24,929 nt of DNA from a virus (taxonomy: Duplodnaviria > Caudoviricetes), in the IMG/VR virus record IMGVR_UViG_3300044472_000025, positions 1 through 24,929 of that record; one strand, 5' to 3'. Made by a program: the position numbers and the translations under genes. Under the pieces are notes generated by a model. It saw nothing but the letters and a program-made list of their open reading frames with translations. It was not told the DNA's origin and did not search any database. Positions 2,682 through 24,456 of this stretch are shown piece by piece (within the stretch, counting starts at the first letter, position 1; every line of letters begins with the position of its first letter).

Positions 2682-3389
2682 TCACAGGTTGCTCAACATC
2701 TTGGCGAACGCCATCTGCCACATGTCGTCGTGCTCGGCGCGGGCCCAGCCATCGATCCACGGGCCGCCGAGCGTGAAGTGGGCGATGCCCAGGTTCTCGG
2801 GCCGGGGTTGCGCGTTCACAAGCCAGTTCCACGCCGGGTCGAGTTCGCCGATCTCGTCGTCATGCAGCCAGTAGAGGGCGTGCAAGTCGCGCCCCGGGCG
2901 CGCGTTGATGTCGTGGATGGTCAGGCGCCTGTTGGCCTTGTGGTCGCAGTTGAACAGCATCACGCTCGACCAGTTCTTGCGCGCGTAGACGCTCTGCTCT
3001 TGGTTGACCATCTTCCGTTGGCGATCGACGACTTGCTGGTGCTGCACCACGCTGAGGGCCTTCTTCGCTGTCGCCTCGATCAGCATCTCGCGCGGGTCGC
3101 GGTAGAAGATGACGTCGCAGTCGACGAACAACGCCATGCCGCCTTGGCAGAGGATCGGCGTGAGGAAACGCGAGATCGCGAAGCGCGTGCTCTTCTTCGC
3201 GTTGCTCACGAGATCATAGTCCTGGCCCCCGCGGTGGTCAGCCAAGCGCCAGAGCAATCCGTGTGCGGTGAGCTTGCTCGCGCACAGCAGTTCAGGCTCG
3301 ATCTGCCCGTGCGTCACGTCGCGCAAGGACTCGACCGCCACGCGGGCGGCCTCATGCTCGCGCTCGTCATAGCCGATGTAGACTTTCAT
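2682..3389 (-). CDS. GT-A glycosyltransferase (GT8-like, similar to the plant CDI-type family)
   Basis: IGYDERE, STRFAISRF, ALFVDCD (DxD), RKNWSSVMLFNC, WNWLV, HFTLGGPW. Confidence 0.85.
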   Translation of the reverse strand: MKVYIGYDEREHEAARVAVESLRDVTHGQIEPELLCASKLTAHGLLWRLADHRGGQDYDLVSNAKKSTRFAISRFLTPILCQGGMALFVDCDVIFYRDPREMLIEATAKKALSVVQHQQVVDRQRKMVNQEQSVYARKNWSSVMLFNCDHKANRRLTIHDINARPGRDLHALYWLHDDEIGELDPAWNWLVNAQPRPENLGIAHFTLGGPWIDGWARAEHDDMWQMAFAKMLSNL

Positions 3390-4036
3390 GCCGGCACGAG
3401 AATGTAGTCGCCTGAGATTTCCTCAACGACCTTGTACCCGAGCCGCTGAAGAAACGAGACAGCCCCTTGCGGCTTGAGCCCGAAGCGCGAAGCCATGTCG
3501 CGTTTCTGCTCCACGATGATCGTCGGCTTGCAGCGCTCGATCGTCTTCAGGCCGCCGATGAGCACGTTCTCTTCGTAGCCTTCGCAATCGATCTTCAGCA
3601 AGTCGACGTTTTCGAGGTTGAACGAGTCAAGCCGACGCATCGGCACGTCGCCGCCGGCGCGCACCTGGCTGTCGCCGCTGCTGCCCTTGGTGGTCTCGAT
3701 GCGGCAGGTGCCCTCGACGGCGCCGAGCGCGTAGGCATGCAGATCGACGTTCTTGAAGTCGGCGAGATTGCGGATGAAGCACTCGCGATGCTCGAGCACC
3801 GGCTCGAAAGCAACGACCTTCTCGAAGCGGTGCGCGAGATTGAAGCTCCACAGGCCGATATGTGCGCCGACATCGACTGCCGTGCCGTTGGTATGGCAGT
3901 GCGCGAGAGTGGCAACCTGCTTGCGGCCTTGGTAAGTGTCACGACCGTTGAGCGGCAACTTGTTCTTGGGCGTGCTCATCCATTCGAGCATGTGGGATTC
4001 GTGGCTAGGCCACCACCAGCCGAGGGCTTGTTTCAT
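3386..4036 (-). CDS. FkbM family SAM-dependent methyltransferase
   Basis: VDVGAHIGLWS, AFEP, LKIDCEGYEENVLIG, KPTIIVE. Confidence 0.93.
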   Translation of the reverse strand: MKQALGWWWPSHESHMLEWMSTPKNKLPLNGRDTYQGRKQVATLAHCHTNGTAVDVGAHIGLWSFNLAHRFEKVVAFEPVLEHRECFIRNLADFKNVDLHAYALGAVEGTCRIETTKGSSGDSQVRAGGDVPMRRLDSFNLENVDLLKIDCEGYEENVLIGGLKTIERCKPTIIVEQKRDMASRFGLKPQGAVSFLQRLGYKVVEEISGDYILVPA

Positions 4037-4311
4037 CACGCTTCTCCTTCAAGTTTGTCCGCAAGTTCACGAAGCGCAGCCGCAGCCTTGCGAGCCGCTT
4101 TCTTCTCGGGCGTGATTGGATCGGGTTCAATAGCCACCCGAATGCCTGAGCACAAACCGAGCAACGAGGCATGCGTTCTGGGTTCTGGTACGTTGCACTC
4201 ACGTGCAAGTTCTTTCGCCATTGAGAGCGGTACCGTTACCTCAATGATCGTCACGCGGCGCGCGTCTGCGTTTGCTTGGATGTCGATAAGGGTGCCGAGA
4301 GCCGAAGTCAT
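4036..4311 (-). CDS. Hypothetical protein (91 aa) within the glycosyltransferase cluster
   Basis: ATG overlaps GT9 stop (ATGA) and its TGA overlaps the FkbM ATG. Confidence 0.6.
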   Translation of the reverse strand: MTSALGTLIDIQANADARRVTIIEVTVPLSMAKELARECNVPEPRTHASLLGLCSGIRVAIEPDPITPEKKAARKAAAALRELADKLEGEA

Positions 4312-5069
4312 TTCAGGATCTCCTTGAGTTCGTTCAAAACCGCTGCCGGGGTGATTGTCGTCATTGCTGCGCGGCAATGGTCGCAGTTCGTTCGCATGCC
4401 GCAACCCAGTCCTTCACCCGCAAACAAGTTGCGGTGCGACGGGTAACCGGTGACGGCCGGTGAGATGAAACCGCCGAAGATGACGACGGCTGGCGTGCCG
4501 ACGGCGGCTGCTGCGTGGTGCAAGCCGCCTTCCGTGCCCACGAACGCACGACACACCGACAGCACGGCGCAGGCCTTGCGGAAGGTGTCGGTTTCGACGA
4601 ACTGGGCGTGCAACAGTTTGCGTGTGCCGGGCGGGCCGCACTGCACGAGCTTGGCGATGCGCCCGAGGTAGATCGCGCTGTCGAGTTGCCCCCAGAAGAT
4701 CGGGCCCCACGCCTTGTTGTTATGGCCCTGGGCCTTCACGTGCGGCTCGACCATCACCATGCCGCGGTAGGGCTCGGCGAAGGCGAGCTCGGCGGGGGTG
4801 AAGAACATCTCGGCGGGCTTGGGCTGGTACTTGCGCCATGTCCAGCGGGTTTCGGTCTTCGCTGCGATGTACGGCCGCACACCGGGGCCGTTCACGATGC
4901 GCGCGAAGTTCGGCAGCCCCCGCAAGTTCTTGACGAGGTACGGCACGCCGTCGAACACCTCAGACCAGATCGGGCGCCCGTCGCGGCCGACGATGAGGAC
5001 CGGGGCCTTCGTCTTGTGGTGCAGCGCGCGGGCTTCGCCGCTCGCCATGATGGCGTCGCCGATGCCCAC
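4308..5069 (-). CDS. GT9 family glycosyltransferase (ADP-heptose:LPS heptosyltransferase-like)
   Basis: N-terminal MGIGDAIM; C-terminal FVGTEGGLHHAAAAVGTPAVVIFGG; terminal C-x-M-x4-C-x2-C. Confidence 0.88.
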   Translation of the reverse strand: MGIGDAIMASGEARALHHKTKAPVLIVGRDGRPIWSEVFDGVPYLVKNLRGLPNFARIVNGPGVRPYIAAKTETRWTWRKYQPKPAEMFFTPAELAFAEPYRGMVMVEPHVKAQGHNNKAWGPIFWGQLDSAIYLGRIAKLVQCGPPGTRKLLHAQFVETDTFRKACAVLSVCRAFVGTEGGLHHAAAAVGTPAVVIFGGFISPAVTGYPSHRNLFAGEGLGCGMRTNCDHCRAAMTTITPAAVLNELKEILK

Positions 5070-5603
5070 TTACGGTGTCTCGACGAGGGTGAAGTTGAGG
5101 CCCCTGTTGAGGTGAGGTTCGCCGAACGTGTCGAGCCACCACTGATAGGGTTTGACCGTCACGTGCAGGTTCTCGTCGGTGCCCGGGAACGTCTTCTTGG
5201 CCGGGCGACAGCACACGCTGGCCCACACGGTGTGACGGGCGTAGGAGAACAGGCGTGCGATGAACTCGTCGACCTCGGCCTCAGGGATGTGCTCGAGCAC
5301 ATCGCTGCACAGCACGGCATCGAACTGCTTGCCGATTGGTGGCAGTTGCGCGTAGCGTTTGAAGGCCGGGTCGTAGAGCGTGACGTTCTTGCGTTTGATG
5401 CCCCACTCGCTGTGAACCGTGTGCGGGCTTGCGTAGGCATCGCCTCGGCCGCAGCCGAAGTCGAGCAGCGTCACGCACCCGTGGCGCTTCAGGATCTTGC
5501 CAATTTGCTTCTTGTGCTGCAGCACACTCAGGCCGTGGAAGTTGCCCTCGTCGGCGGCCATCTCGCGGTAGCGGCCGGTCAGCGTGTCCACACGCCCACC
5601 CAT
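5070..5603 (-). CDS. Class I SAM-dependent methyltransferase
   Basis: LLDFGCGRG, YDPA, FDAVLCSDVLEHIPE, NLHVTVKPYQWW. Confidence 0.9.
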   Translation of the reverse strand: MGGRVDTLTGRYREMAADEGNFHGLSVLQHKKQIGKILKRHGCVTLLDFGCGRGDAYASPHTVHSEWGIKRKNVTLYDPAFKRYAQLPPIGKQFDAVLCSDVLEHIPEAEVDEFIARLFSYARHTVWASVCCRPAKKTFPGTDENLHVTVKPYQWWLDTFGEPHLNRGLNFTLVETP

Positions 5604-6130
5604 TCGCCGAAGTGCCCGCCGTAGCTCGACTCGCGCAGCTTGAAGCCCGCACGTTCCATCGTCTTCCCGATGTAATGCGGTTCGTTCTTCGAGCGCTCGT
5701 CAACGATGGTGGGCGCGTGCTCCGGCGGCAGTCGCAGCACCACGGCTTCGCGTGCGGCCTCCGCGAACGCAGCGCAGGCCGCAGTCGGGTTGCGCAGCTT
5801 GTGCAACAACGCCAGCGCGATCACGATGTCGTAGCTGCGTTTCGGGCGCCACGTGTTGGCGTCGGCGACTTCGAAGGTGACCGGCAGGTCGCCGCGCACA
5901 CGGTTCGCGACTTCGACGTGCTGCGGCACGATCTCCACTCCGTGGACCGCTACGGCGCCTAGCTTGGCCATCTCGATGCTGATGAGGCCTTCGGCGCACC
6001 CGATGTCGAGCACCGACTTGCCGGCGCAGTTGTCGCACAGCCAGTTGAGCCCCTTCATCTGGTCACCGATCGTTCGGTCCCCCGGGCGCCCCGGGGTCCA
6101 GAACCAACCCTTCACTTTCTGTTGAGCCAT
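5579..6130 (-). CDS. Class I SAM-dependent methyltransferase
   Basis: GKSVLDIGCAEG, VHGVEI, YDIVIALALLHKL; start taken at ATG 6130 (MAQQKV). Confidence 0.9.
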   Translation of the reverse strand: MAQQKVKGWFWTPGRPGDRTIGDQMKGLNWLCDNCAGKSVLDIGCAEGLISIEMAKLGAVAVHGVEIVPQHVEVANRVRGDLPVTFEVADANTWRPKRSYDIVIALALLHKLRNPTAACAAFAEAAREAVVLRLPPEHAPTIVDERSKNEPHYIGKTMERAGFKLRESSYGGHFGEWVGVWTR

Positions 6131-6840
6131 TGCCAAGCCTTTCCTTCTCTGATTTCGTCGAGAGTCCACTGATTGTCGGCGAGCACACCGAAGGCACGAA
6201 GCCTATCGTCGCCCTCTGCGCTGAGCGCGGCGCGGTAGGCCAAGCCGTGAACTGCGGAGTGCTTGGAGACGATCGGGCAGACACCGTGCAGGAGTGCTTC
6301 GACTGCTGCGGCCGACGAATGCGTGACGAGCCCCCACGCGCCTTCGAGATCGTCTTGCAACGTGCCGCTGGCCCGTGTCTTGTCACGGTCCCATGCGCGG
6401 ATGCGCAGCGGTCGCGCAGTGCCGAGCGCGTAGTAGTAGCGCAGCCAGTCGTGCTTCACGCCGATGATGTCGCGCATGAAGGCCTCGGACTGCGGGCACA
6501 CAACCCAATGCGCGCCCGGACCTACATCCTGCCACTCACGCGGCACAAGGCCTAAGGCTGCGAAGCGCTTGCCGTCGGTCTGTTGATCGCCAACGCGCAT
6601 CTGCACTGCGTTCTTCGCGATGCGGAATTGTTGCCCGCGTACCGCATCGAAGAAGGAGTTGTCGATGTAGTAGAAGGGCAGCCCTGCGGCCTGCACCTTG
6701 CGCCAAGCATCGAGGTTCGTGTGGTTCACGCCGTAGAAAACCGCGCCGACGGCGCGCTTGTCCGGGCAGCCGTCGAGGAAGGCCCAGCAGATGTCGGCTG
6801 ACTTCTGCTTGCCGGCGACGGGGTGTGCGGTCAGGCCCAT
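6112..6840 (-). CDS. GT-B glycosyltransferase-like protein (KpsC/KpsS capsule-biosynthesis-like), paralog 1
   Basis: YYIDNSFF, VVCPQS, LVTHSSAAAVEALLHGV, QWTLDEIREG; start taken at ATG 6840. Confidence 0.65.
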   Translation of the reverse strand: MGLTAHPVAGKQKSADICWAFLDGCPDKRAVGAVFYGVNHTNLDAWRKVQAAGLPFYYIDNSFFDAVRGQQFRIAKNAVQMRVGDQQTDGKRFAALGLVPREWQDVGPGAHWVVCPQSEAFMRDIIGVKHDWLRYYYALGTARPLRIRAWDRDKTRASGTLQDDLEGAWGLVTHSSAAAVEALLHGVCPIVSKHSAVHGLAYRAALSAEGDDRLRAFGVLADNQWTLDEIREGKAWQWLNRK

Positions 6841-7595
6841 TTCGCAGGCCCCCAGTCGAGTGCGCGCATGCGTGCGAAGGGCTCGCCGTTTTCGACCTCG
6901 GCGACCTTCCACTGCCCGTGCGACATGCGATGTAGGGCGAGTTCGCGAGACGAGTCTGAGCACACCCAGTATGGCGCAGCGTGCCGCACCGGCACGCCTT
7001 CAACCAATGCCTGCACACCGGCAGCACTCGACCAGATGACGCACTCCTTGCACCCCTTCAGGTCGCGGAACAGCGGCACTTTCGGCACGAAGTTGCCGGG
7101 GTGGGGGCGGAAGCGCACGTTCTTCTCACCGCGCGCTTTCAGCTTGGCGACCGTCTTTTCACCCCACTGCGGTGGGCTTGCCATGAGTTTTGAGCCGACC
7201 ATGCGTTGGCCGCAGACGAGAATGTGCCCTTCGGCATTGCTTTGCCGGGGCTTGATCTCGAACCCGAGCCGCGAGAACCGGTCTTCGTCGCCCACAGGGA
7301 ACCAGCCGCTGCCGTTGTGGCCGTGCGTGCTGATCGCATACATCGACTTGTCGATGCGTTGCAGGTAGGCGTTCTCGGTCACGATGACAGTGCCGCCGCG
7401 GCGCTCCCAATCGTCGGCCTGCTCCTCGGACTGACCGGCCTTCTTGTTCCACATCACGAGCAGGTCGTCGCGACTTGACGGGCGCCGGTTGCGCATCTCC
7501 GAGTCCACGATGTAGCCGAGCCGCTTCAGGCCTTTCTCGAAGGCCTCACGCCGGTAGGCCGGCTCCTTGCGCAGTTGGATGATGGCGAGGCTCAC
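6831..7595 (-). CDS. GT-B glycosyltransferase-like protein (KpsC/KpsS capsule-biosynthesis-like), paralog 2
   Basis: VTENAYL, ILVCGQ, FRPHP (HP motif), WSSAAGVQALVEGVPV, QWKVAEVENG. Confidence 0.7.
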   Translation of the reverse strand: MSLAIIQLRKEPAYRREAFEKGLKRLGYIVDSEMRNRRPSSRDDLLVMWNKKAGQSEEQADDWERRGGTVIVTENAYLQRIDKSMYAISTHGHNGSGWFPVGDEDRFSRLGFEIKPRQSNAEGHILVCGQRMVGSKLMASPPQWGEKTVAKLKARGEKNVRFRPHPGNFVPKVPLFRDLKGCKECVIWSSAAGVQALVEGVPVRHAAPYWVCSDSSRELALHRMSHGQWKVAEVENGEPFARMRALDWGPAKWA

Positions 7596-8197
7596 AGTTC
7601 GCTCTCCAAAGTCGAGCGCGGGAACACGTCGAGCGCCGAACCTGGGGTGCAGTTGATGACCTCGCAGCCTTCGGCTTTCAGATCAGCCGCGAGCTTCGTG
7701 AACTTGTGAAGCCACTCCTCAAACTGGTGCTTCTGCACGCACGGGCTCGGGTGGTCGGGGTGCCAGTGCTTCTCGCCGTTCGGCCCCTCGCGCATGTCGA
7801 AGCCGATGAGTAGGATGCGCCGGCAGCCGAAGAGGTACGCGAGGTTGATGGCCGCATAGCCCGAGTTGCCGCCCGTGCAAAGCTCGCGCTTGCCGAGGCC
7901 GTCGCGGGCGATGTTGCGCATGTACTTCAACTGCCAGCGTTCGGCCGCTGCGCTGTCGCACGTCCAGCACTTGTGCATGAGCGCGGCTTTGCGCAGCTCG
8001 TCCGCATAGCTGCGCCAAAACATGAAGTCGATGCCGAAGATCACATCGGCCCAGGGCGCAAGCCGGAACGTGGCGTTCGTGACGATCAGCGGGTGGGTGT
8101 ATCGCGCGACCTGCAACTGCTCATGCGTGAGGCTCGGCCCGCTGGCCGCGATGACGCAAGTTTGACCGGACCAGTCGAGAGGCTTGGCGCTGTTCAT
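7592..8197 (-). CDS. Maf/MptE-like (CstII sialyltransferase-fold) glycosyltransferase-like protein
   Basis: CVIAASGPSL, IVTN, GGNSGYAAINLAYLFGCRRILLIGFDM, HW, VINCTPGSAL. Confidence 0.75.
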   Translation of the reverse strand: MNSAKPLDWSGQTCVIAASGPSLTHEQLQVARYTHPLIVTNATFRLAPWADVIFGIDFMFWRSYADELRKAALMHKCWTCDSAAAERWQLKYMRNIARDGLGKRELCTGGNSGYAAINLAYLFGCRRILLIGFDMREGPNGEKHWHPDHPSPCVQKHQFEEWLHKFTKLAADLKAEGCEVINCTPGSALDVFPRSTLESEL

Positions 8198-12201: not shown

Positions 12202-14421
12202 TCAGCCCTTCTCGTATCGCTTGGTTTCGAACCCTGCCGCGGCTAGCGGCAGCCCTGCATTCCACCCGAGATCGGAGCACATGATGCGGCCCAGTTCTTC
12301 CGCGGTGAATTGGGGTTCATCCGGGGTCTCGCAAATGAGTTCGTCGTGAACGTGCAAAACGATCGGGTAGCCGGCTGCCTCAGCCAACGGCATGCACTCG
12401 GCAAGCTGGTCGCAGGCGAGGGCTTGCACAAGGTTCTCGAACAGCTTGCCGCCATAGGTGTGAACCCGCCCCCACTGGCGCGTGTAGGTGTTCTGCCCGG
12501 TGTAGGTAATCGAGCCGTCCTTCTCGATCTGGGGGTTCGGGTAGCACAGCGCGCGGCCGCTGGGCAGCCCGATACGCAACCATGCGCCATCGCGGCGGAT
12601 CTTCACCTTGCGGCACGGGAAGGTCTCGCCCGGGGCGTCGATCGCCTCGCACGCGGTGTCTTCGAGCTCCTTCCAGTAGCTGCTGATCTGCGGATGCGCG
12701 CGGCGCCACAGGCGCTTGATGGCGTCGCAGGCTTGGAAGACTTGCTCAGCGAGACCGAAGCGCGCTTTGATCTTTGCGGCGGGTAGACGCTCTTCGGCAG
12801 CAAGGTGCTGCGGGCTGTCGTCACCGTACTTTACCCGGGCCTTCTCGACTTTCGCTTCCTCGATGTCGTACAGCCACTGCAAGAATCCCTCGGCCTCCTC
12901 GATCGCCCAGGCCGGCAAGGTGTCCCACACTTGCGCGGTCATCTTGTCGAGATCGATGCCGTAGGTCGCAGCTCCGGTGATCCACGCGCCGACACCGCCG
13001 CCGTACTGAAACATCAGTTCCTCGACCTTGCCAATTTGGCGCTCGGGGCCCTTCTTCGGCACCGTCTCGGGTGCGACGCCGAACGACTTCGCGTAGGCGA
13101 CGATGTAGAGATCGTGACCGATGCCGTTGTCGAAGTCGCGGAAGGCTTGCAGCTTCCACTCTTCCCCGGCGGCCCACGCCGCGCCGCGCCCTTCGATATT
13201 GGACAGGTCGGCGATGACCAGCTTTTTGCCCGGTCCGGCGACGATGGCGCCGCGCACGGTGTTGCCGATCGCTTCCATGACGTCGGGGAAGATGAGATCG
13301 GCGCAATCGGTCTTCAGCGCTTCGATCGCCAGTTCAATCTGCGCGTGCGACAGCGTAGGCCGCATGAGGTTGCCCGGCTGAAATCTGCGATGCGCCCAGC
13401 GGCCCGTGCGGCCGGCACCTCGGAACTGCGCGCAGCCGCGCAACCGGTGGTCGTGGCTCACGCTCTTGAGCAGCGCCTTGAATTTCGCTGCGGTGTTGCG
13501 CGAGGCCTGCAAGCGGATGCGGATCAGATCCTTCACGCCTTCAGGCAAGTCCGGGTCTTCCAGGCGCCGCTCGAGCGTGTCGGACTGCATGTCGGGCAGC
13601 GTGACGCCGTACTCGGCGAGGATGTGCTTGAGTAGTTCGTCGCGCTGGGTGGCCGCTTGCACGGCATCGTTGGTGGCTTCGCGCGTTTGCCGGGCGAGCT
13701 CGGCCTTTTCCTTGTCGCTCGCGCGCACGGCGGCTTGTGCCAGATCGACATCGACCGCGAACCCGCGCCCGTTGATCTTCCAGTCGAGCAAGCACAGATC
13801 GACTTGCTTGCCCTTGTAGTTCCACTCCGGCATGCGTCGGCGTGCGGAGCGCATGGTCACGATGTCTTGGCCTGCGTACTCGATGAAGTGCTGCCACTCC
13901 TTCGGGTGCGACTGCTTGGTGTTGTACGTGCCGTCCTCTTTCGGGATGCAGAACAACCGCACCCACTTGCGGCCTTCGGAGAGTTTGCGCTCGCCTTGAT
14001 CGACGTCGAGGATGCTGCCCAGCTTGTCGAGCGAACCGGGCAGTGCGTGCGCGAAGGCCTGCACCATCGTGTCGCGACGGCGCGAGTGCGTGATGAGCCC
14101 GGAGAGGATCGGCAGCGCGCGGTCGATCACCGGGAAGTCGAACTGACCGCCGTTGTGCGCCCACACGAGATTGCCGGAGTCTCGGATGCCCTGCTCAAGA
14201 TCGACCGGGGGCTGCCCCTTGCGCAGCGGCGCGCTGGTCCACACGCCACTCAAGTCCTCCTGCCAGTGCAAGCGGTCGTTGAGCAAGTCCCACACCTTGA
14301 CGGCATCGCCCTCGAGCGCGTAGGCCCATAGCGTGACCTCCGCGCGCTCGGCGTAGCGGTAGCTGCCGTCCTTGATCGGCACGGGACTGCGGGTCTCAAG
14401 GTCGATGTAGAAGTCGCGCAT
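12202..14421 (-). CDS. polA: Family A DNA polymerase with 3'-5' exonuclease (Leu762 type)
   Basis: ExoI DLET, ExoII HNGGQFD, ExoIII YAGQD; RTGRW; motif A DLSNIEGR; motif B RQIGKVEELMFQYG; motif C VHDE. Confidence 0.96.
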   Translation of the reverse strand: MRDFYIDLETRSPVPIKDGSYRYAERAEVTLWAYALEGDAVKVWDLLNDRLHWQEDLSGVWTSAPLRKGQPPVDLEQGIRDSGNLVWAHNGGQFDFPVIDRALPILSGLITHSRRRDTMVQAFAHALPGSLDKLGSILDVDQGERKLSEGRKWVRLFCIPKEDGTYNTKQSHPKEWQHFIEYAGQDIVTMRSARRRMPEWNYKGKQVDLCLLDWKINGRGFAVDVDLAQAAVRASDKEKAELARQTREATNDAVQAATQRDELLKHILAEYGVTLPDMQSDTLERRLEDPDLPEGVKDLIRIRLQASRNTAAKFKALLKSVSHDHRLRGCAQFRGAGRTGRWAHRRFQPGNLMRPTLSHAQIELAIEALKTDCADLIFPDVMEAIGNTVRGAIVAGPGKKLVIADLSNIEGRGAAWAAGEEWKLQAFRDFDNGIGHDLYIVAYAKSFGVAPETVPKKGPERQIGKVEELMFQYGGGVGAWITGAATYGIDLDKMTAQVWDTLPAWAIEEAEGFLQWLYDIEEAKVEKARVKYGDDSPQHLAAEERLPAAKIKARFGLAEQVFQACDAIKRLWRRAHPQISSYWKELEDTACEAIDAPGETFPCRKVKIRRDGAWLRIGLPSGRALCYPNPQIEKDGSITYTGQNTYTRQWGRVHTYGGKLFENLVQALACDQLAECMPLAEAAGYPIVLHVHDELICETPDEPQFTAEELGRIMCSDLGWNAGLPLAAAGFETKRYEKG

Positions 14422-14423
14422 TT

Positions 14424-14513
14424 TGGTGAGAGGGTGACAGGAATCGAACCTGCGACTAACCACCCGTATGACCCCGGGCAGTTCCCGCTAACCATCTGCG
14501 GGCACACCCCCTC
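14424..14513 (-). tRNA. Non-canonical tRNA-like RNA (9-bp acceptor, 5-bp D stem, 8-bp anticodon stem with 8-nt loop, canonical T arm, encoded ACCA)
   Basis: Minus strand: GAGGGGGTG TG CCCGC AGATGGTTA GCGGG A ACTGCCCG GGGTCATA CGGGTGGT TAGTC GCAGG TTCGATT CCTGT CACCCTCTC ACCA. Confidence 0.75.
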
Positions 14514-14516
14514 ACC

Positions 14517-14540
14517 AAAACGCGCGGGGCCGAAGCCCCG
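14517..14540 (-). terminator. C(UUCG)G hairpin, weak intrinsic terminator or processing stem after the SSB gene
   Basis: CGGGGC-TTCG-GCCCCG followed by CGCG-TTTT. Confidence 0.55.
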
Positions 14541-14547
14541 TGGCGTA

Positions 14548-15135
14548 TCAGCTCAGATCCTCGGCATCCGCGCCTTCGGTGATCTCGCCGAAGTCGTCGG
14601 CGACCGGTGCAGCACCGCCGCCGAAGGCGTCGCCGTCGCGCACGCGCTGGATGCCCAGCAACGTAGCGCGCAGGCCCTTGCCGTTCTTGTTGTCCTGGCA
14701 CCAGAACTCGACCTGGATGTTCACGAAGCAGCCGGCGTAGATGCGCCCGGCCTTGCCGTCATAGAGCTCGTTGTCGGGCATGTAGATGGGCGACTTGTCG
14801 GTATCCATCACCAGCGGGCGACCGGCGTTCTTGTAGCGGTGCGCGGTCAGGGCGTAGTGGCCTTGGTAGCCGTCGTAATCCTTGCGCTTGCCGTCGATCC
14901 AGCACGTGCCCTTCGGGTCCGTGAGGCAGTTGTCGTAGGCCGACTGCCACTTCTTCTCCCACTTCTCCTTGGCGGCCGCTTGCAGCGCCTCCTCGACCGC
15001 CTTCTTGGTTGGTGAGTCGTACGGCACGAGCGCCGTGACGGACCAGCGGAATTGCTTGTTGCCTTGGTAGTCCTCGGGCTCACCGAGGACCGGGAACGAG
15101 CAGCGAACACCGCTCAACATCAGTTTCAAGCCCAT
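14548..15135 (-). CDS. DUF2815 single-stranded DNA-binding protein
   Basis: VRCSFP, IYAGCFVN, GLRATLLGIQRVRDGDAFGGG, acidic C-tail; AAGGAG RBS. Confidence 0.92.
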   Translation of the reverse strand: MGLKLMLSGVRCSFPVLGEPEDYQGNKQFRWSVTALVPYDSPTKKAVEEALQAAAKEKWEKKWQSAYDNCLTDPKGTCWIDGKRKDYDGYQGHYALTAHRYKNAGRPLVMDTDKSPIYMPDNELYDGKAGRIYAGCFVNIQVEFWCQDNKNGKGLRATLLGIQRVRDGDAFGGGAAPVADDFGEITEGADAEDLS

Positions 15136-15165: not shown

Positions 15166-15528
15166 TCAGGACTTCTGCGCAGCGAGACGGCTGCGAAGCT
15201 CGTAGCCCATCAGCGGCCAGCAATTGTTCACTGCGTTGGCGCGGGCGATCTTGCGGCCCATTTCGGCGTCGAAGTTCTCAGGGCTGGCGCAGGCCGACTC
15301 GCCGGTGACGGTGAAGCCATTGCGCAGCACCAGCACGCAGAAGGTGAGCAGAGCGAGTGCATCCGGGTTGCCTTGGGTCACACCCCTGTCTTGCGCTCCT
15401 GCCCACCCATCCATCGCGGTGAAGTACACCTCATCGGCGATGTTCGCCTCGATGTCGGCCGGCGTGATGCGCGGTGCGGTCAGGCCCTTGGCCTGGATTT
15501 CGGTTTCGATCTCGTGCTCGGTACTCAT
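15166..15528 (-). CDS. Phage Gp49/gp66 family protein (candidate Acb4-like anti-CBASS nucleotide sponge)
   Basis: APRITPADIE, LTFCVLVLRNGFTVTGESACASPENFDAEMGRKIA, WPLMGY. Confidence 0.85.
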   Translation of the reverse strand: MSTEHEIETEIQAKGLTAPRITPADIEANIADEVYFTAMDGWAGAQDRGVTQGNPDALALLTFCVLVLRNGFTVTGESACASPENFDAEMGRKIARANAVNNCWPLMGYELRSRLAAQKS

Positions 15529-16844
15529 GCTGACAAGTCCTCGTCTTGAACGGTTGCGAAATCCGAAGCGTCCGGCTTCGGTACGGTATACGGCTTCTTG
15601 ATCTGCGACAGCGGCTTGACCGAGGGCTTCGGGTCGTTCTGCACGATCAAGGCCTGCATCTCCTTCCAGCGCCGCGGGCCGATGACGGCAGGCACTTCGA
15701 TGGGCTTGCCTGCGGCATCGGTGCCTGGCGTCGGTTTGGTCATCTTCTCGAACTGCGTGGGCGACTTGAGCGACAGGTTGAAGGCGTTCTCGACCGTGAG
15801 CCGAAACTTCTTGCGCACCAGTTCCTCGGCCGCCATCTCGTCACTGAAACGGCGCGCTCCTTTGCGCCCGAGCTCCAGGCCGAAGCCCTCGACCGTATCG
15901 CCACCGATCAGGCGGCGCTCGACCTCGGCGCGCACGGCCTTGATCCAGTCCTCTATCAGAGGGGCGGCGGCCATAGCTTGTGCCAATCGGTCGCTCGGCG
16001 GCGGCTGCACGAACACCTGTTGCACTGGGTCGGCGATGACGTGGAAGTCCGCCCCGACCGTCTCCTGCACCTTGCGCGCAACGCTCGGGCACGTCGCCAT
16101 CGCACGGCAGAAGGCGCATTCCTGATCGTTCGGGTTCGGGTTCAGGTAGGCGGCCTCCCATTTCTCGCTCGGCACCAGGCCGTAATCGCGCTCGGCGTTG
16201 AGCACGGAACACGCCCGCGAGCGCACCGTGTCAGCGAACTTGAGCAGGTATTCGACACTGCACGCCCACTCGGTCGTGCCGGCAGCACGCGGCTGGTGGA
16301 TGAACAGGCGGATGCCGTCGATGTCGTGCGCGAGGCTCAGTTCGTTGTACAGGGCCAGCGCGTAGATGAGCAACTGCGTGTTCTTCTCGACCTCGACGGG
16401 GGTGTGCCCAAACTTGTAGTCGTGAACCTGCAGTTCGCGATCTCTGGTGAGGATGCCGACATCGAGCGTGCCGAACTGCCCCGGCAGCTGCACGACATCA
16501 GAGAAGTCCACCCGGTGCTCGATGAGGTACAGCGTGCAGCCGATGGTGAGCGAGCGCACCGTGTCGACGACGCCTTGCACCTCGTCTGCCGCATCGTCGG
16601 TGAAGCGCACATAGCGCGGCTCTTCGCCATCCGCATGCACGGGGACGAGCTCGCCCACCCACTTGCTCGCCCGGAAGTGTTCGGTCATGCACCGGCGCGC
16701 GATCTCGTGCTTTGCCGTGCCGTCGTCGCTGTACTTGTTCGCCTCGTTCGGAATCGACGCTTCGAGCGTAAGGCTGCCTGGGCACGCGAACCACTTCTTG
16801 CTGCCGCTGGGCGACAGGCGGGCGTGTTCTGCTTGTTCGGTCAC
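15525..16844 (-). CDS. DUF2800 Cas4-like PD-(D/E)XK exonuclease
   Basis: HARLSPSG...CPGS, GTAKHE, FGTLD, DYKFG, QLLIYALA, HQPR, CAFCRAMATC. Confidence 0.92.
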   Translation of the reverse strand: MTEQAEHARLSPSGSKKWFACPGSLTLEASIPNEANKYSDDGTAKHEIARRCMTEHFRASKWVGELVPVHADGEEPRYVRFTDDAADEVQGVVDTVRSLTIGCTLYLIEHRVDFSDVVQLPGQFGTLDVGILTRDRELQVHDYKFGHTPVEVEKNTQLLIYALALYNELSLAHDIDGIRLFIHQPRAAGTTEWACSVEYLLKFADTVRSRACSVLNAERDYGLVPSEKWEAAYLNPNPNDQECAFCRAMATCPSVARKVQETVGADFHVIADPVQQVFVQPPPSDRLAQAMAAAPLIEDWIKAVRAEVERRLIGGDTVEGFGLELGRKGARRFSDEMAAEELVRKKFRLTVENAFNLSLKSPTQFEKMTKPTPGTDAAGKPIEVPAVIGPRRWKEMQALIVQNDPKPSVKPLSQIKKPYTVPKPDASDFATVQDEDLSA

Positions 16845-19150: not shown

Positions 19151-19232
19151 GAATGCCAAGATGAGGGCCGCACCCTGTGAATTTCGGTTCTGGGTTCGGT
19201 TGGCGCTGAGCGCGGCCCTCATCTTGGCGTTT
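19151..19232. repeat. Long inverted repeat (17-bp perfect core, 21 bp with G-U) around a 40-bp spacer
   Basis: GCCAAGATGAGGGCCGC (19155-19171) / GCGGCCCTCATCTTGGC (19212-19228). Confidence 0.85.
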
Positions 19233-19252: not shown

Positions 19253-20257
19253 GTGAGCGGCGCCTATTACAACGAGATCGAGCCCTATGCAGCAGAGTGG
19301 TTGCGCAACCTCATCGTGTGCGAGCTCATCGCCGATGGCGAAGTCGACACCCGCAGCATCGAGGACGTGCGCCCCGACGACTTGCGAGGCTTCACGCAAT
19401 GCCACTTCTTCGCAGGCATCGGTGTGTGGTCCCATGCTTTGCGGCTCGCGGGCGTGCCCGACAGCATGCCTGTGTGGACGGGGAGCTGTCCTTGCCAACC
19501 TTTCTCCGCGGCAGGCCAAGGTCGCGGGTTTGATGACGAGCGGCATCTGTGGCCCGCTTGGCACTACATCATCGAGCAGTGCCGCCCTGGGCTTGTCTTT
19601 GGTGAGCAAGTTGCAAGCAAGGACGCAGAGCCTTGGATCGACCTTGTTCATACTGACATGGAAACCCTGGGTTACGCCTTCTGGGCGGTGCCGTTCCCGG
19701 CTGCGAGCGTCGGTGCGCCGCACATCCGAGACCGAGCTTACTTCGTGGCCTACGACGACGACGACGGATGCAAAAGGCTCGCGTACCCTTGGGTACAACG
19801 GGCAAGCGTTTATGACGCTCACGGACGCGGCCCTCACGGCTACCAAGCATTGGCCGACGCCGCGGGCCGAGGACAGCGAGTCATCGGGCGCCAGGCTGAG
19901 CCGGGGGATCGCGGACACGCTGACAGCGGTTTCGAGGCTGGCCGCCTGGAGCACACCCTTGGCTGCGGACGGGTCGAAAGCGGACGCGACCCTACCGGCA
20001 GTCCTGCGCAGGAGTACAGAGCAGGGTCGGTCGTTGAGTTGCGCGATGCAAGCCCGGCTTGCGTCTTGCGCGGCCACTGGGCCGATGCCGAATGGATCTG
20101 GTGCCGAGACGGCAAGTACCGGCCAGTTGAACCCGGCACATTCCCGCTGGCTCATGGGGCTCCTGCCCGAGTGGGACGCCTGCGCGCCTATGGCAACGCG
20201 ATCGTCGCGACGCAAGCCGCCGAGTTCATCAAAGCGGCACTCGCGTGCCGTCCCTGA
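19253..20257 (+). CDS. DNA (cytosine-5)-methyltransferase, alpha polypeptide
   Basis: FFAGIG (I), GSCPCQPFS (IV), GEQV (VI), PHIRDR (VIII), RLRAYGNAI (X); no motif IX in this frame. Confidence 0.92.
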   Translation: MSGAYYNEIEPYAAEWLRNLIVCELIADGEVDTRSIEDVRPDDLRGFTQCHFFAGIGVWSHALRLAGVPDSMPVWTGSCPCQPFSAAGQGRGFDDERHLWPAWHYIIEQCRPGLVFGEQVASKDAEPWIDLVHTDMETLGYAFWAVPFPAASVGAPHIRDRAYFVAYDDDDGCKRLAYPWVQRASVYDAHGRGPHGYQALADAAGRGQRVIGRQAEPGDRGHADSGFEAGRLEHTLGCGRVESGRDPTGSPAQEYRAGSVVELRDASPACVLRGHWADAEWIWCRDGKYRPVEPGTFPLAHGAPARVGRLRAYGNAIVATQAAEFIKAALACRP

Positions 20258-24329: not shown

Positions 24330-24456
24330 GCTGCACCTGTACACCTAAAAAACAGGCTTTTTCCGGTTAGCGCGCCTATAGGAGAAAATCAGTCGGACCC
24401 TGTTTTTACGTATGACCAACCGGAAAACGGCGTTTTTTGAGGTGCAGAGGTGCAGC
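24330..24456. other. Putative replication origin: imperfect 39-bp inverted repeat with TGCACCT iterons and A/T tracts
   Basis: Left arm GCTGCACCTGTACACCTAAAAAACAGGCTTTTTCCGGTT vs reverse complement of right arm GCTGCACCTCTGCACCTCAAAAAACGCCGTTTTCCGGTT; directly after the helicase gene. Confidence 0.65.

Follow-up and report, generated by a model that had tools for sequence, protein, structure and literature searches.

We analysed a stretch of 24,929 nucleotides from a virus (Duplodnaviria; Caudoviricetes), positions 1 to 24,929 of the IMG/VR record IMGVR_UViG_3300044472_000025, referred to below as the window. Between its genes for a single-strand-binding protein (SSB) and a family A DNA polymerase (polA) lies a 22-bp stalk that, judging from the sequence, is likely cut on both strands by the host's RNase III (we put the probability at roughly 0.85). 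The stalk matches the preferences of RNase III, buries the ATG of polA, recurs in relatives and holds different interiors there. In the window the interior is a tRNA-like cloverleaf, which an earlier reading made from the letters alone (the sequence-only reading) had taken for a tRNA mimic forming the 5' leader of polA. The conserved unit is instead the stalk, and the cloverleaf one cargo among many. The parts of the element and its two flanking genes are:

12202..14421, minus strand: family A DNA polymerase gene that starts with the ATG at 14421 and has no Shine-Dalgarno sequence (PF00476 weak; 50% identical to BPP-1 Bbp42 from residue 1)
14415..14436, minus strand: 3' arm of the stalk, containing ACCA and the first seven polA bases; predicted RNase III cut between 14425 and 14424 (fold, RNase III scoring)
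14425..14514, minus strand: predicted released 90-nt RNA with a 10-bp closing stem, a 3' CC overhang and the cloverleaf (register from the matrix score; release is a prediction)
14437..14504, minus strand: tRNA-derived interior (cargo), made up of a D arm, an anticodon arm that is remodelled and has no U33-type loop, a variable loop and a T arm (fold, sequence)
14505..14526, minus strand: 5' arm of the stalk, in which RNase III is predicted to cut between 14515 and 14514 (fold, RNase III scoring, kept in relatives)
14525..14540, minus strand: GC-rich UUCG hairpin after the SSB stop (fold; no call in the terminator scan)
14548..15135, minus strand: Enc34-type single-strand-binding protein gene, DUF2815 type (Pfam PF10991, E 1.6e-30; homologue of BPP-1 bbp40)

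The stalk resembles RNase III double-cut sites

In the fold, positions 14526-14505 pair with 14415-14436 in a closing helix of 22 bp, longer than the 16 bp given in the sequence-only reading. That reading had placed the CCA and the A of the polA ATG inside the helix; the start codon is indeed covered, and the burial extends over the whole of ATG CGC G.

We scored the helix with pair counts from the 85 in vivo E. coli double-cut sites in Table S4 of PMC6212723; on a control site our scores ran about 1 unit above the published ones (-22.7 versus -23.92). The best register, UUUUGG^UGAG after 14515 and CUCACC^AAAAUG after 14425, scored -18.7 with this E. coli matrix, which may not be the host's. 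The preferred pairs are in place, with A-U or U-A in the proximal boxes and G-C between the cuts, and the score compares with a high threshold of -25.5 in PMC6212723. The length also fits an enzyme that takes about 11 bp of duplex on each side of a cut: the 22 contiguous pairs lie 12 outside and 10 inside the first predicted cut. Shuffling the stalk's own base pairs matched its score in 3 of 20,000 trials and the score of its 10-pair core in none of 20,000. When both strands of the whole window were scanned, the stalk was the top-scoring RNase III-type site, and it scored better on the minus strand (-18.7) than on the other (-22.2). A second long inverted repeat (19154-19231, plus strand; about 17-19 bp with a 38-nt loop), just before a C5 methylase gene at 19253, came second in the window, with RNase III-type scores of -22.2 on the plus and -20.7 on the minus strand.

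A mapped site has nearly the same ends. In the dicF-dicB spacer of the Qin prophage (E. coli K-12), an in vivo double cut, at UUUUGU^G on one side and CAC^AAAAU on the other, encloses a loop of 130 nt (PMC6212723, Table S5a), and motif identity with this site is a better guide to the cut register than the matrix alone.

The GC-rich hairpin just upstream has counterparts of varied sequence before the stalk in relatives. The sequence-only reading had assigned it the TTTT as a U-tract; however, the four U's lie 4 nt past the hairpin and are followed by G, short of the five or more U's that come directly after the GC hairpin of an intrinsic terminator, and the terminator scan made no call here.

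The polA start codon is part of the stalk

The ATG at 14421 is the homologous polA start and aligns with residue 1 of BPP-1 Bbp42. On this alignment we reject initiation at GTG 14463, which the sequence-only reading had named as an outcome that would undo its proposal. Behind the predicted cut the leader is 3 nt, AAA, and the AAA-AUG message shows little structure in the fold. Cleavage could free a near-leaderless polA message, much as the sequence-only reading imagined in its processing switch, although the evidence points to RNase III rather than to RNase P, Z or E. In 32 stalks the predicted cut is followed, 3 nt on, by an ATG; 15 of these ATGs start polA, with varied N-termini, and seven more start other frames, one of them a confirmed NUMOD4-HNH.

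The stalk recurs downstream of SSB in relatives

Relatives were gathered through SSB among the contigs of viruses, metagenomes and genomes; in each of the first two large scans the best 80 of 142 were kept. A strict stalk, defined by the ends YUUUGN...NCAAAR, was present in 52 of 134 non-redundant SSB-downstream regions of BPP-1-like phages. Its frequency varied with SSB identity, from 33/48 at 60% or more to 9/29 at 45-60% and 10/57 below. BPP-1 itself has the stalk, around an inner RNA of 58 nt. The same test found 0/134 in SSB-coding sequence, and 0.05 were expected in shuffles. An unanchored search for long helices, which skipped four too-short regions, recovered the same stalks, with the same best register in many loci. 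A locus search with the N-terminal half of polA gave 20 candidates, none of them confirmed.

Mismatches were concentrated beside the cut: the adjoining pair is mismatched in 12 of the 52 unique stalks, and each of the six other free columns in 0 to 3. The search itself fixed the first six columns, which are therefore uninformative. The pair next to the cut is also mismatch-tolerant in the E. coli table of PMC6212723. Some stalks have no CCA (CAUCAAAG, CACAAAG). Of the 15 close relatives failing the strict test, inspection by eye shows that seven (L053, L146, L139, L186, L136, L140 and L143) do have a stalk, though one with additional mismatches or closing only a tiny loop; three have lost the 5' arm and five have no stalk.

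Further structured modules accompany some stalks. L151 has two tandem hairpin-plus-stalk modules with different cargos 27-190 nt after the SSB stop. Within the first 150-175 nt after the SSB stop, L001, L135, L141, L139, L152 and L057 have an extra structured module upstream of the stalk, with its own long imperfect closing stem and of at least two sequence types.

The interior is exchanged

The 43 unique inner RNAs fell into at most 29 BLAST families (20 nt or more) and 3 near-empty loops. Six loci judged spurious by eye (L059, L105, L119, L124, L126, L337) and a nested 29-nt sub-stem of L161 were left out, and the true number may be below 29, because L052/L054 and L167/L175 were placed in separate families by BLAST despite their common core. 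Rfam searches of 6, 20, 20 and 20 loci matched no cargo at the gathering score; the sole match was a tRNA in L042, a non-SSB locus. A T-arm lies near the 3' arm in 4 of the 29 families (the window, L069, L154 and L194), against 0.0045 expected.

In close relatives the stalk, its ACCA and the fused ATG are retained while the interior is a non-tRNA RNA or an empty loop, so that a tRNA shape, which the sequence-only reading had made the basis of its switch, is not needed for the arrangement. The GAGGGG/CCCCUC run of the window also occurs in L137, L165, L166 and L108, with non-tRNA interiors. Because the G-rich run, which makes up most of the 'acceptor stem', and the ACCA are common to non-tRNA cargos, both the long 'acceptor stem' and the ACCA belong to the stalk, and the 9/5 geometry and encoded CCA result from a tRNA core seated on it.

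Several cargo families have features of their own. L001, L002, L072, L138, L144 and L153 share a 131-nt multi-hairpin cargo with many GNRA-type loops and no Rfam match; between L153 and L001 there is a compensatory stem change within this one family, located in its last stem. A second family (L052, L054, L167, L175, L168) has a fixed core and a central hairpin that varies freely. In the L065 cargo two hairpin loops appear complementary to each other, and its start resembles the Qin dicB-leader loop by eye.

A scan for a stalk plus a T-loop found at least 9 cases with a paired stalk among the 96 unique matches listed. The same type of stalk encloses a tRNA-derived cloverleaf in L042 (1495-1597), L040 and L036, each time with a scrambled anticodon arm, and the L042 interior scores 45.4 bits against Rfam tRNA. 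By eye, the L042 and L036 cloverleaves follow a repressor-like gene, in the place of the lambda N leader. L320 has a tRNA-derived RNA inside the same kind of stalk. In L263, L325 and L326 normal-looking tRNA genes are flanked by the stalk motif, and in L326 the predicted cut falls between C75 and A76 of the encoded CCA.

The window cargo is a cloverleaf unlikely to decode

The cloverleaf spans 14425-14514 on the minus strand, and its parts are those that the sequence-only reading described. A 9-bp acceptor-like stem (14513-14505/14436-14428) leads through the linker UG to a 5-bp D stem with the GG-containing loop AGAUGGUUA; then come a stem of 8-9 bp in the anticodon position with the 8-nt loop GGGUCAUA (14474-14467), a 5-nt variable loop, a 5-bp T stem with a UUCGAUU loop, ACCA, and the ATG at 14421-14419. 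Positions 14419-14520 fold as a cloverleaf with a z of -5.4, and the 90-nt span of the predicted released RNA folds alone with a z of -3.7 (0 of 200 shuffles as good in each case). The D-loop plus T-arm pattern appeared in 5 of 200,000 shuffles of the 68-nt interior. Read from the sequence, the tRNA core and elbow bases are all present (U8, A14, G15, G18, G19, A21, C48, G53, U54, U55, C56, A58, C61), the G15-C48 core pair among them, and all stems are fully paired and longer than those of a tRNA.

That this is not a decoding tRNA had been proposed from the letters alone, and the anticodon arm, the acceptor geometry, ARAGORN and Rfam all agree. According to PMC7609411 the anticodon stem is conserved at 5 bp (6 in tRNA-Pyl) and the loop at 7 nt, whereas the window has 8-9 bp and 8 nt and no canonical loop with U33. 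The acceptor branch, 12 bp in canonical tRNAs and allo-tRNAs (PMC5389517), is 14 bp here; a 7-bp stem of the canonical 7/5 branch would leave the tail UCACC, and CCA fits only the 9-bp stem. Nor does the element have the long variable arm and the 8/5, 8/4 or 9/3 branch of tRNA-Sec and allo-tRNAs, with its 5-nt variable loop and 9/5 branch. The sequence-only reading was right to separate it from these classes on its geometry, but the geometry arises from a tRNA core set on a stalk whose GAGGGG/CCCCUC run also surrounds non-tRNA interiors. As for the tRNA searches which that reading had suggested, ARAGORN at default settings reported no tRNA gene in the element, a relaxed run gave only noise among the matches listed, and the sole Rfam match was tRNA-Sec at 24.8 bits (gathering score 47, E 0.6). 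The 8-9-bp anticodon stem, the loop of 8 nt and the lack of a separate acceptor identity make it unlikely that the window cargo decodes, and the frameshift or UGA-suppressor tRNA also considered in the sequence-only reading found no support; the decoy that it considered as well may apply.

Conservation, another check proposed there, holds for the stalk (in the 52 regions above) and not for the cloverleaf: BLAST and pattern scans of IMG/VR, phage and plasmid records found no close homologue of the window cargo. Among the phage and plasmid records, BLAST with the element gave only T-arm-sized matches. The first pattern scan returned 5 loci, of which three represent a single tRNA-like sequence that shares the D arm and lacks a stalk and two resemble ordinary tRNAs; the second returned 22, none with a stalk (best pairing 10/13); and there was no close homologue among the 28 loci of the third. 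The three-contig sequence, L342, comes from an unrelated phage, has a 17-nt D arm and variable loop in common with the window cargo and is likewise without an anticodon loop. L342, L382, L384, L380 and L386 are anticodon-less tRNA-like RNAs with intact D and T arms and no stalk, on unrelated phage contigs.

Genomic setting

By Pfam and homology, the minus-strand replication module has the order DUF2800 - gp49 - SSB - polA, an organisation that matches Bordetella phage BPP-1 and Burkholderia phage BcepC6B. Its two genes upstream of SSB are:

15166..15528, minus strand: N4 gp49 / Sf6 gp66 family gene (Pfam PF13876)
15525..16844, minus strand: DUF2800 / PD-(D/E)XK nuclease gene, which opens the BPP-1-like replication module (Pfam PF10926, PF12705)

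Elsewhere in the window, methyltransferase genes (FkbM and other types) cluster with glycosyltransferase family 9 and MptE-like genes downstream of a helicase gene (2682-8197, minus strand).

Discussion

We propose that double cutting after 14515 and 14425 would divide the transcript into an SSB message, a 90-nt RNA and a polA message. The SSB message would end in the UUCG hairpin, which may protect it. The polA message, with a 3-nt leader, no Shine-Dalgarno sequence and its start codon uncovered, would be translated weakly, and weak translation would suit a high ratio of SSB to polymerase. Since its content would be removed from the message by the cuts, the loop can serve as a slot for swappable small RNAs. 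The 90-nt cloverleaf released in the window would end in CC and would be a stable, non-decoding RNA with a tRNA elbow that works in trans; its most plausible target is a host tRNA-binding protein, the least secure step of the scheme. That the RNase III stalk comes together with a selected, functional cargo we consider an even bet. In favour of a function are the lengthened, fully paired stems of the window cargo with its elbow bases retained, and the compensatory change between L153 and L001 in another cargo family.

We also entertain a wider interpretation, which is unlikely in its entirety. BPP-1-like phages may use the SSB-downstream RNase III stalk as a fast-evolving small-RNA cassette, comparable to the hotspots of counter-defence accessory genes, in which the double cut both excises an RNA and makes a near-leaderless polymerase message. 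The RNA would here be a tRNA-elbow decoy whose CC end is completed by the host's CCA-adding enzyme and which titrates a tRNA-attacking defence protein; the other cargos would be undescribed phage RNAs.

Several observations count against RNase III cleavage of the stalk or narrow its scope. The scoring matrix is E. coli's, and the nearest genome match is an uncultured Burkholderiales at 52% SSB identity. On the dicB control the true register came third by total score and tied for first by core, so the cut in the window may be off by 1-2 nt. Of the SSB-downstream regions, 82/134 have no strict stalk, and many loci are near-identical relatives rather than independent events. Nine of the 32 stalks with a +3 ATG are followed by a Shine-Dalgarno-like motif and a later start, and one more by a second module; the +3 ATG may for this reason be a by-product of the stalk consensus in those cases. 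L057, L157 and L162 have lost the 5' arm and the cargo and kept CACCAAAAUG, and L057 starts polA from CACCAAAAUG. Cleavage is therefore not needed in every relative, and because L057 has no 5' arm to cut, what matters may be the opening of the start rather than cutting as such. Finally, the window cargo is known from one sequence only.

The main rival keeps the RNase III stalk and treats the interior as an inert passenger, a captured tRNA fragment tolerated since the loop is cut from the message. We find this possible, if somewhat doubtful. It would account for the empty loops in close relatives (L136, L140, L143, L003) and sits well with the lack of a close homologue of the window cargo in IMG/VR, phage or plasmid records and with how common anticodon-less tRNA-like pieces are in phage contigs. 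A decaying tRNA should lose pairs, however, and here the D and anticodon stems have gained them, with no mismatch and with the elbow bases intact; T-arms, moreover, recur in 4/29 unrelated cargo families.

Other explanations dispense with the RNase III site or give the RNA another task, and each has little probability. Mimicry of a tRNA might recruit RNase P, Z or E, with cleavage gating polA translation. An intact elbow and ACCA after a stem suit RNase P, which could still trim the released RNA, but in the precursor both leader and trailer are paired, a cut by RNase P in the 5' arm would leave the 3' arm in place and create no new polA 5' end, several stalks do not carry a CCA, and relatives without a tRNA shape keep the stalk, ACCA and fused ATG. 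An antisense role for the released RNA, with pairing through its loops as in P1 C4 or P4 CI RNA, is similarly improbable. A 9-nt complement of the anticodon-position loop does lie over an ATG at window 24409-24417; yet 50 of 200 resampled windows held an equally good match, which puts this one at chance level for the 24.9 kb of genome searched, and Rfam gave no C4-type match. We see just as small a chance that the inverted repeat acts at the DNA level, as the ends of a small mobile unit, or in transcription as a terminator, its likeness to RNase III sites being incidental. The tandem modules of L151 and the lost arm of L057 do show recombination at this place, and a GC hairpin precedes a U run. 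Against this, the G-U pairs and tolerated mismatches fit a minus-strand RNA, as does the better minus-strand score; no terminator was called, and the stalk matches mapped RNase III sites. Most improbable of all is a decoding, quadruplet or UGA-suppressor tRNA: the cloverleaf is complete and its loop includes CAU and UCA, but its anticodon arm, 14-bp branch and negative ARAGORN and Rfam results all speak against it, and the predicted cut splits the CCA.

If the stalk is an RNase III site, it bears on several questions. RNase III stems in phage messages are known, and their loops are usually treated as spacer. One fixed stalk around up to 29 unrelated folded RNAs with predictable ends would supply a ready set of candidate phage small RNAs, together with a simple way to look for others. 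It would also show, in a natural system, whether near-leaderless messages of essential genes can be produced by a host nuclease. It is a warning, too, that 'odd tRNAs' of phages with a long acceptor stem and an encoded CCA can be tRNA cores on an RNase III stalk. We found no description of a swappable-RNA slot in the literature searched; older phage work, including classical lambda, lay mostly outside that search, and this absence is accordingly weak.

Comparison with known systems

The lambda N leader, in the sequence we retrieved, has a 109-nt loop closed by CUUUGG...CCAAAG, and its best register is identical to that of the window. The cuts predicted there, at +88 and +197, agree with what we take to be the mapped sites, counted from what is presumably +1. 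Unlike the intercistronic site of the window, which belongs to a replication operon, it is an early regulatory leader with a nut site and a Shine-Dalgarno sequence. The Qin dicF-dicB spacer shares the stalk motif and register (UUUUGN^ ... C^AAAAU) and has a structured 130-nt loop directly before a gene (PMC6212723). In contrast to polA, whose ATG is inside the stalk and has no Shine-Dalgarno sequence, dicB retains one after the cut; the loop is not tRNA-like, and no loop swapping is described for it in the passages of PMC6212723 used here.

T7 R1.1 and related phage sites are likewise intercistronic stems that mature and protect phage mRNAs, although PMC8708148 presents them as small hairpins with single-strand cuts and no enclosed RNA. 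DicF is a prophage small RNA made from a polycistronic message with the involvement of RNase III (bioRxiv 2023.04.14.536235); according to the same source it acts by base pairing and only its 5' end comes from RNase III, whereas the double cut in the window would excise a whole RNA. The tRNA-Sec and allo-tRNA (8/4, 9/3) classes resemble the element in their long acceptor-like stem, and in the weak Rfam tRNA-Sec score, and differ from it in that the window has no long variable arm and no canonical anticodon loop and owes its 9/5 branch to the stalk.

Altogether, the element probably works like the RNase III sites of the lambda N leader, Qin dicB and T7: it has the sequence and structure of that class, and its cleavage is predicted. 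What sets it apart from the described cases is that whole structured RNAs are exchanged within a fixed stalk, and that a start codon is fused three bases behind the cut.

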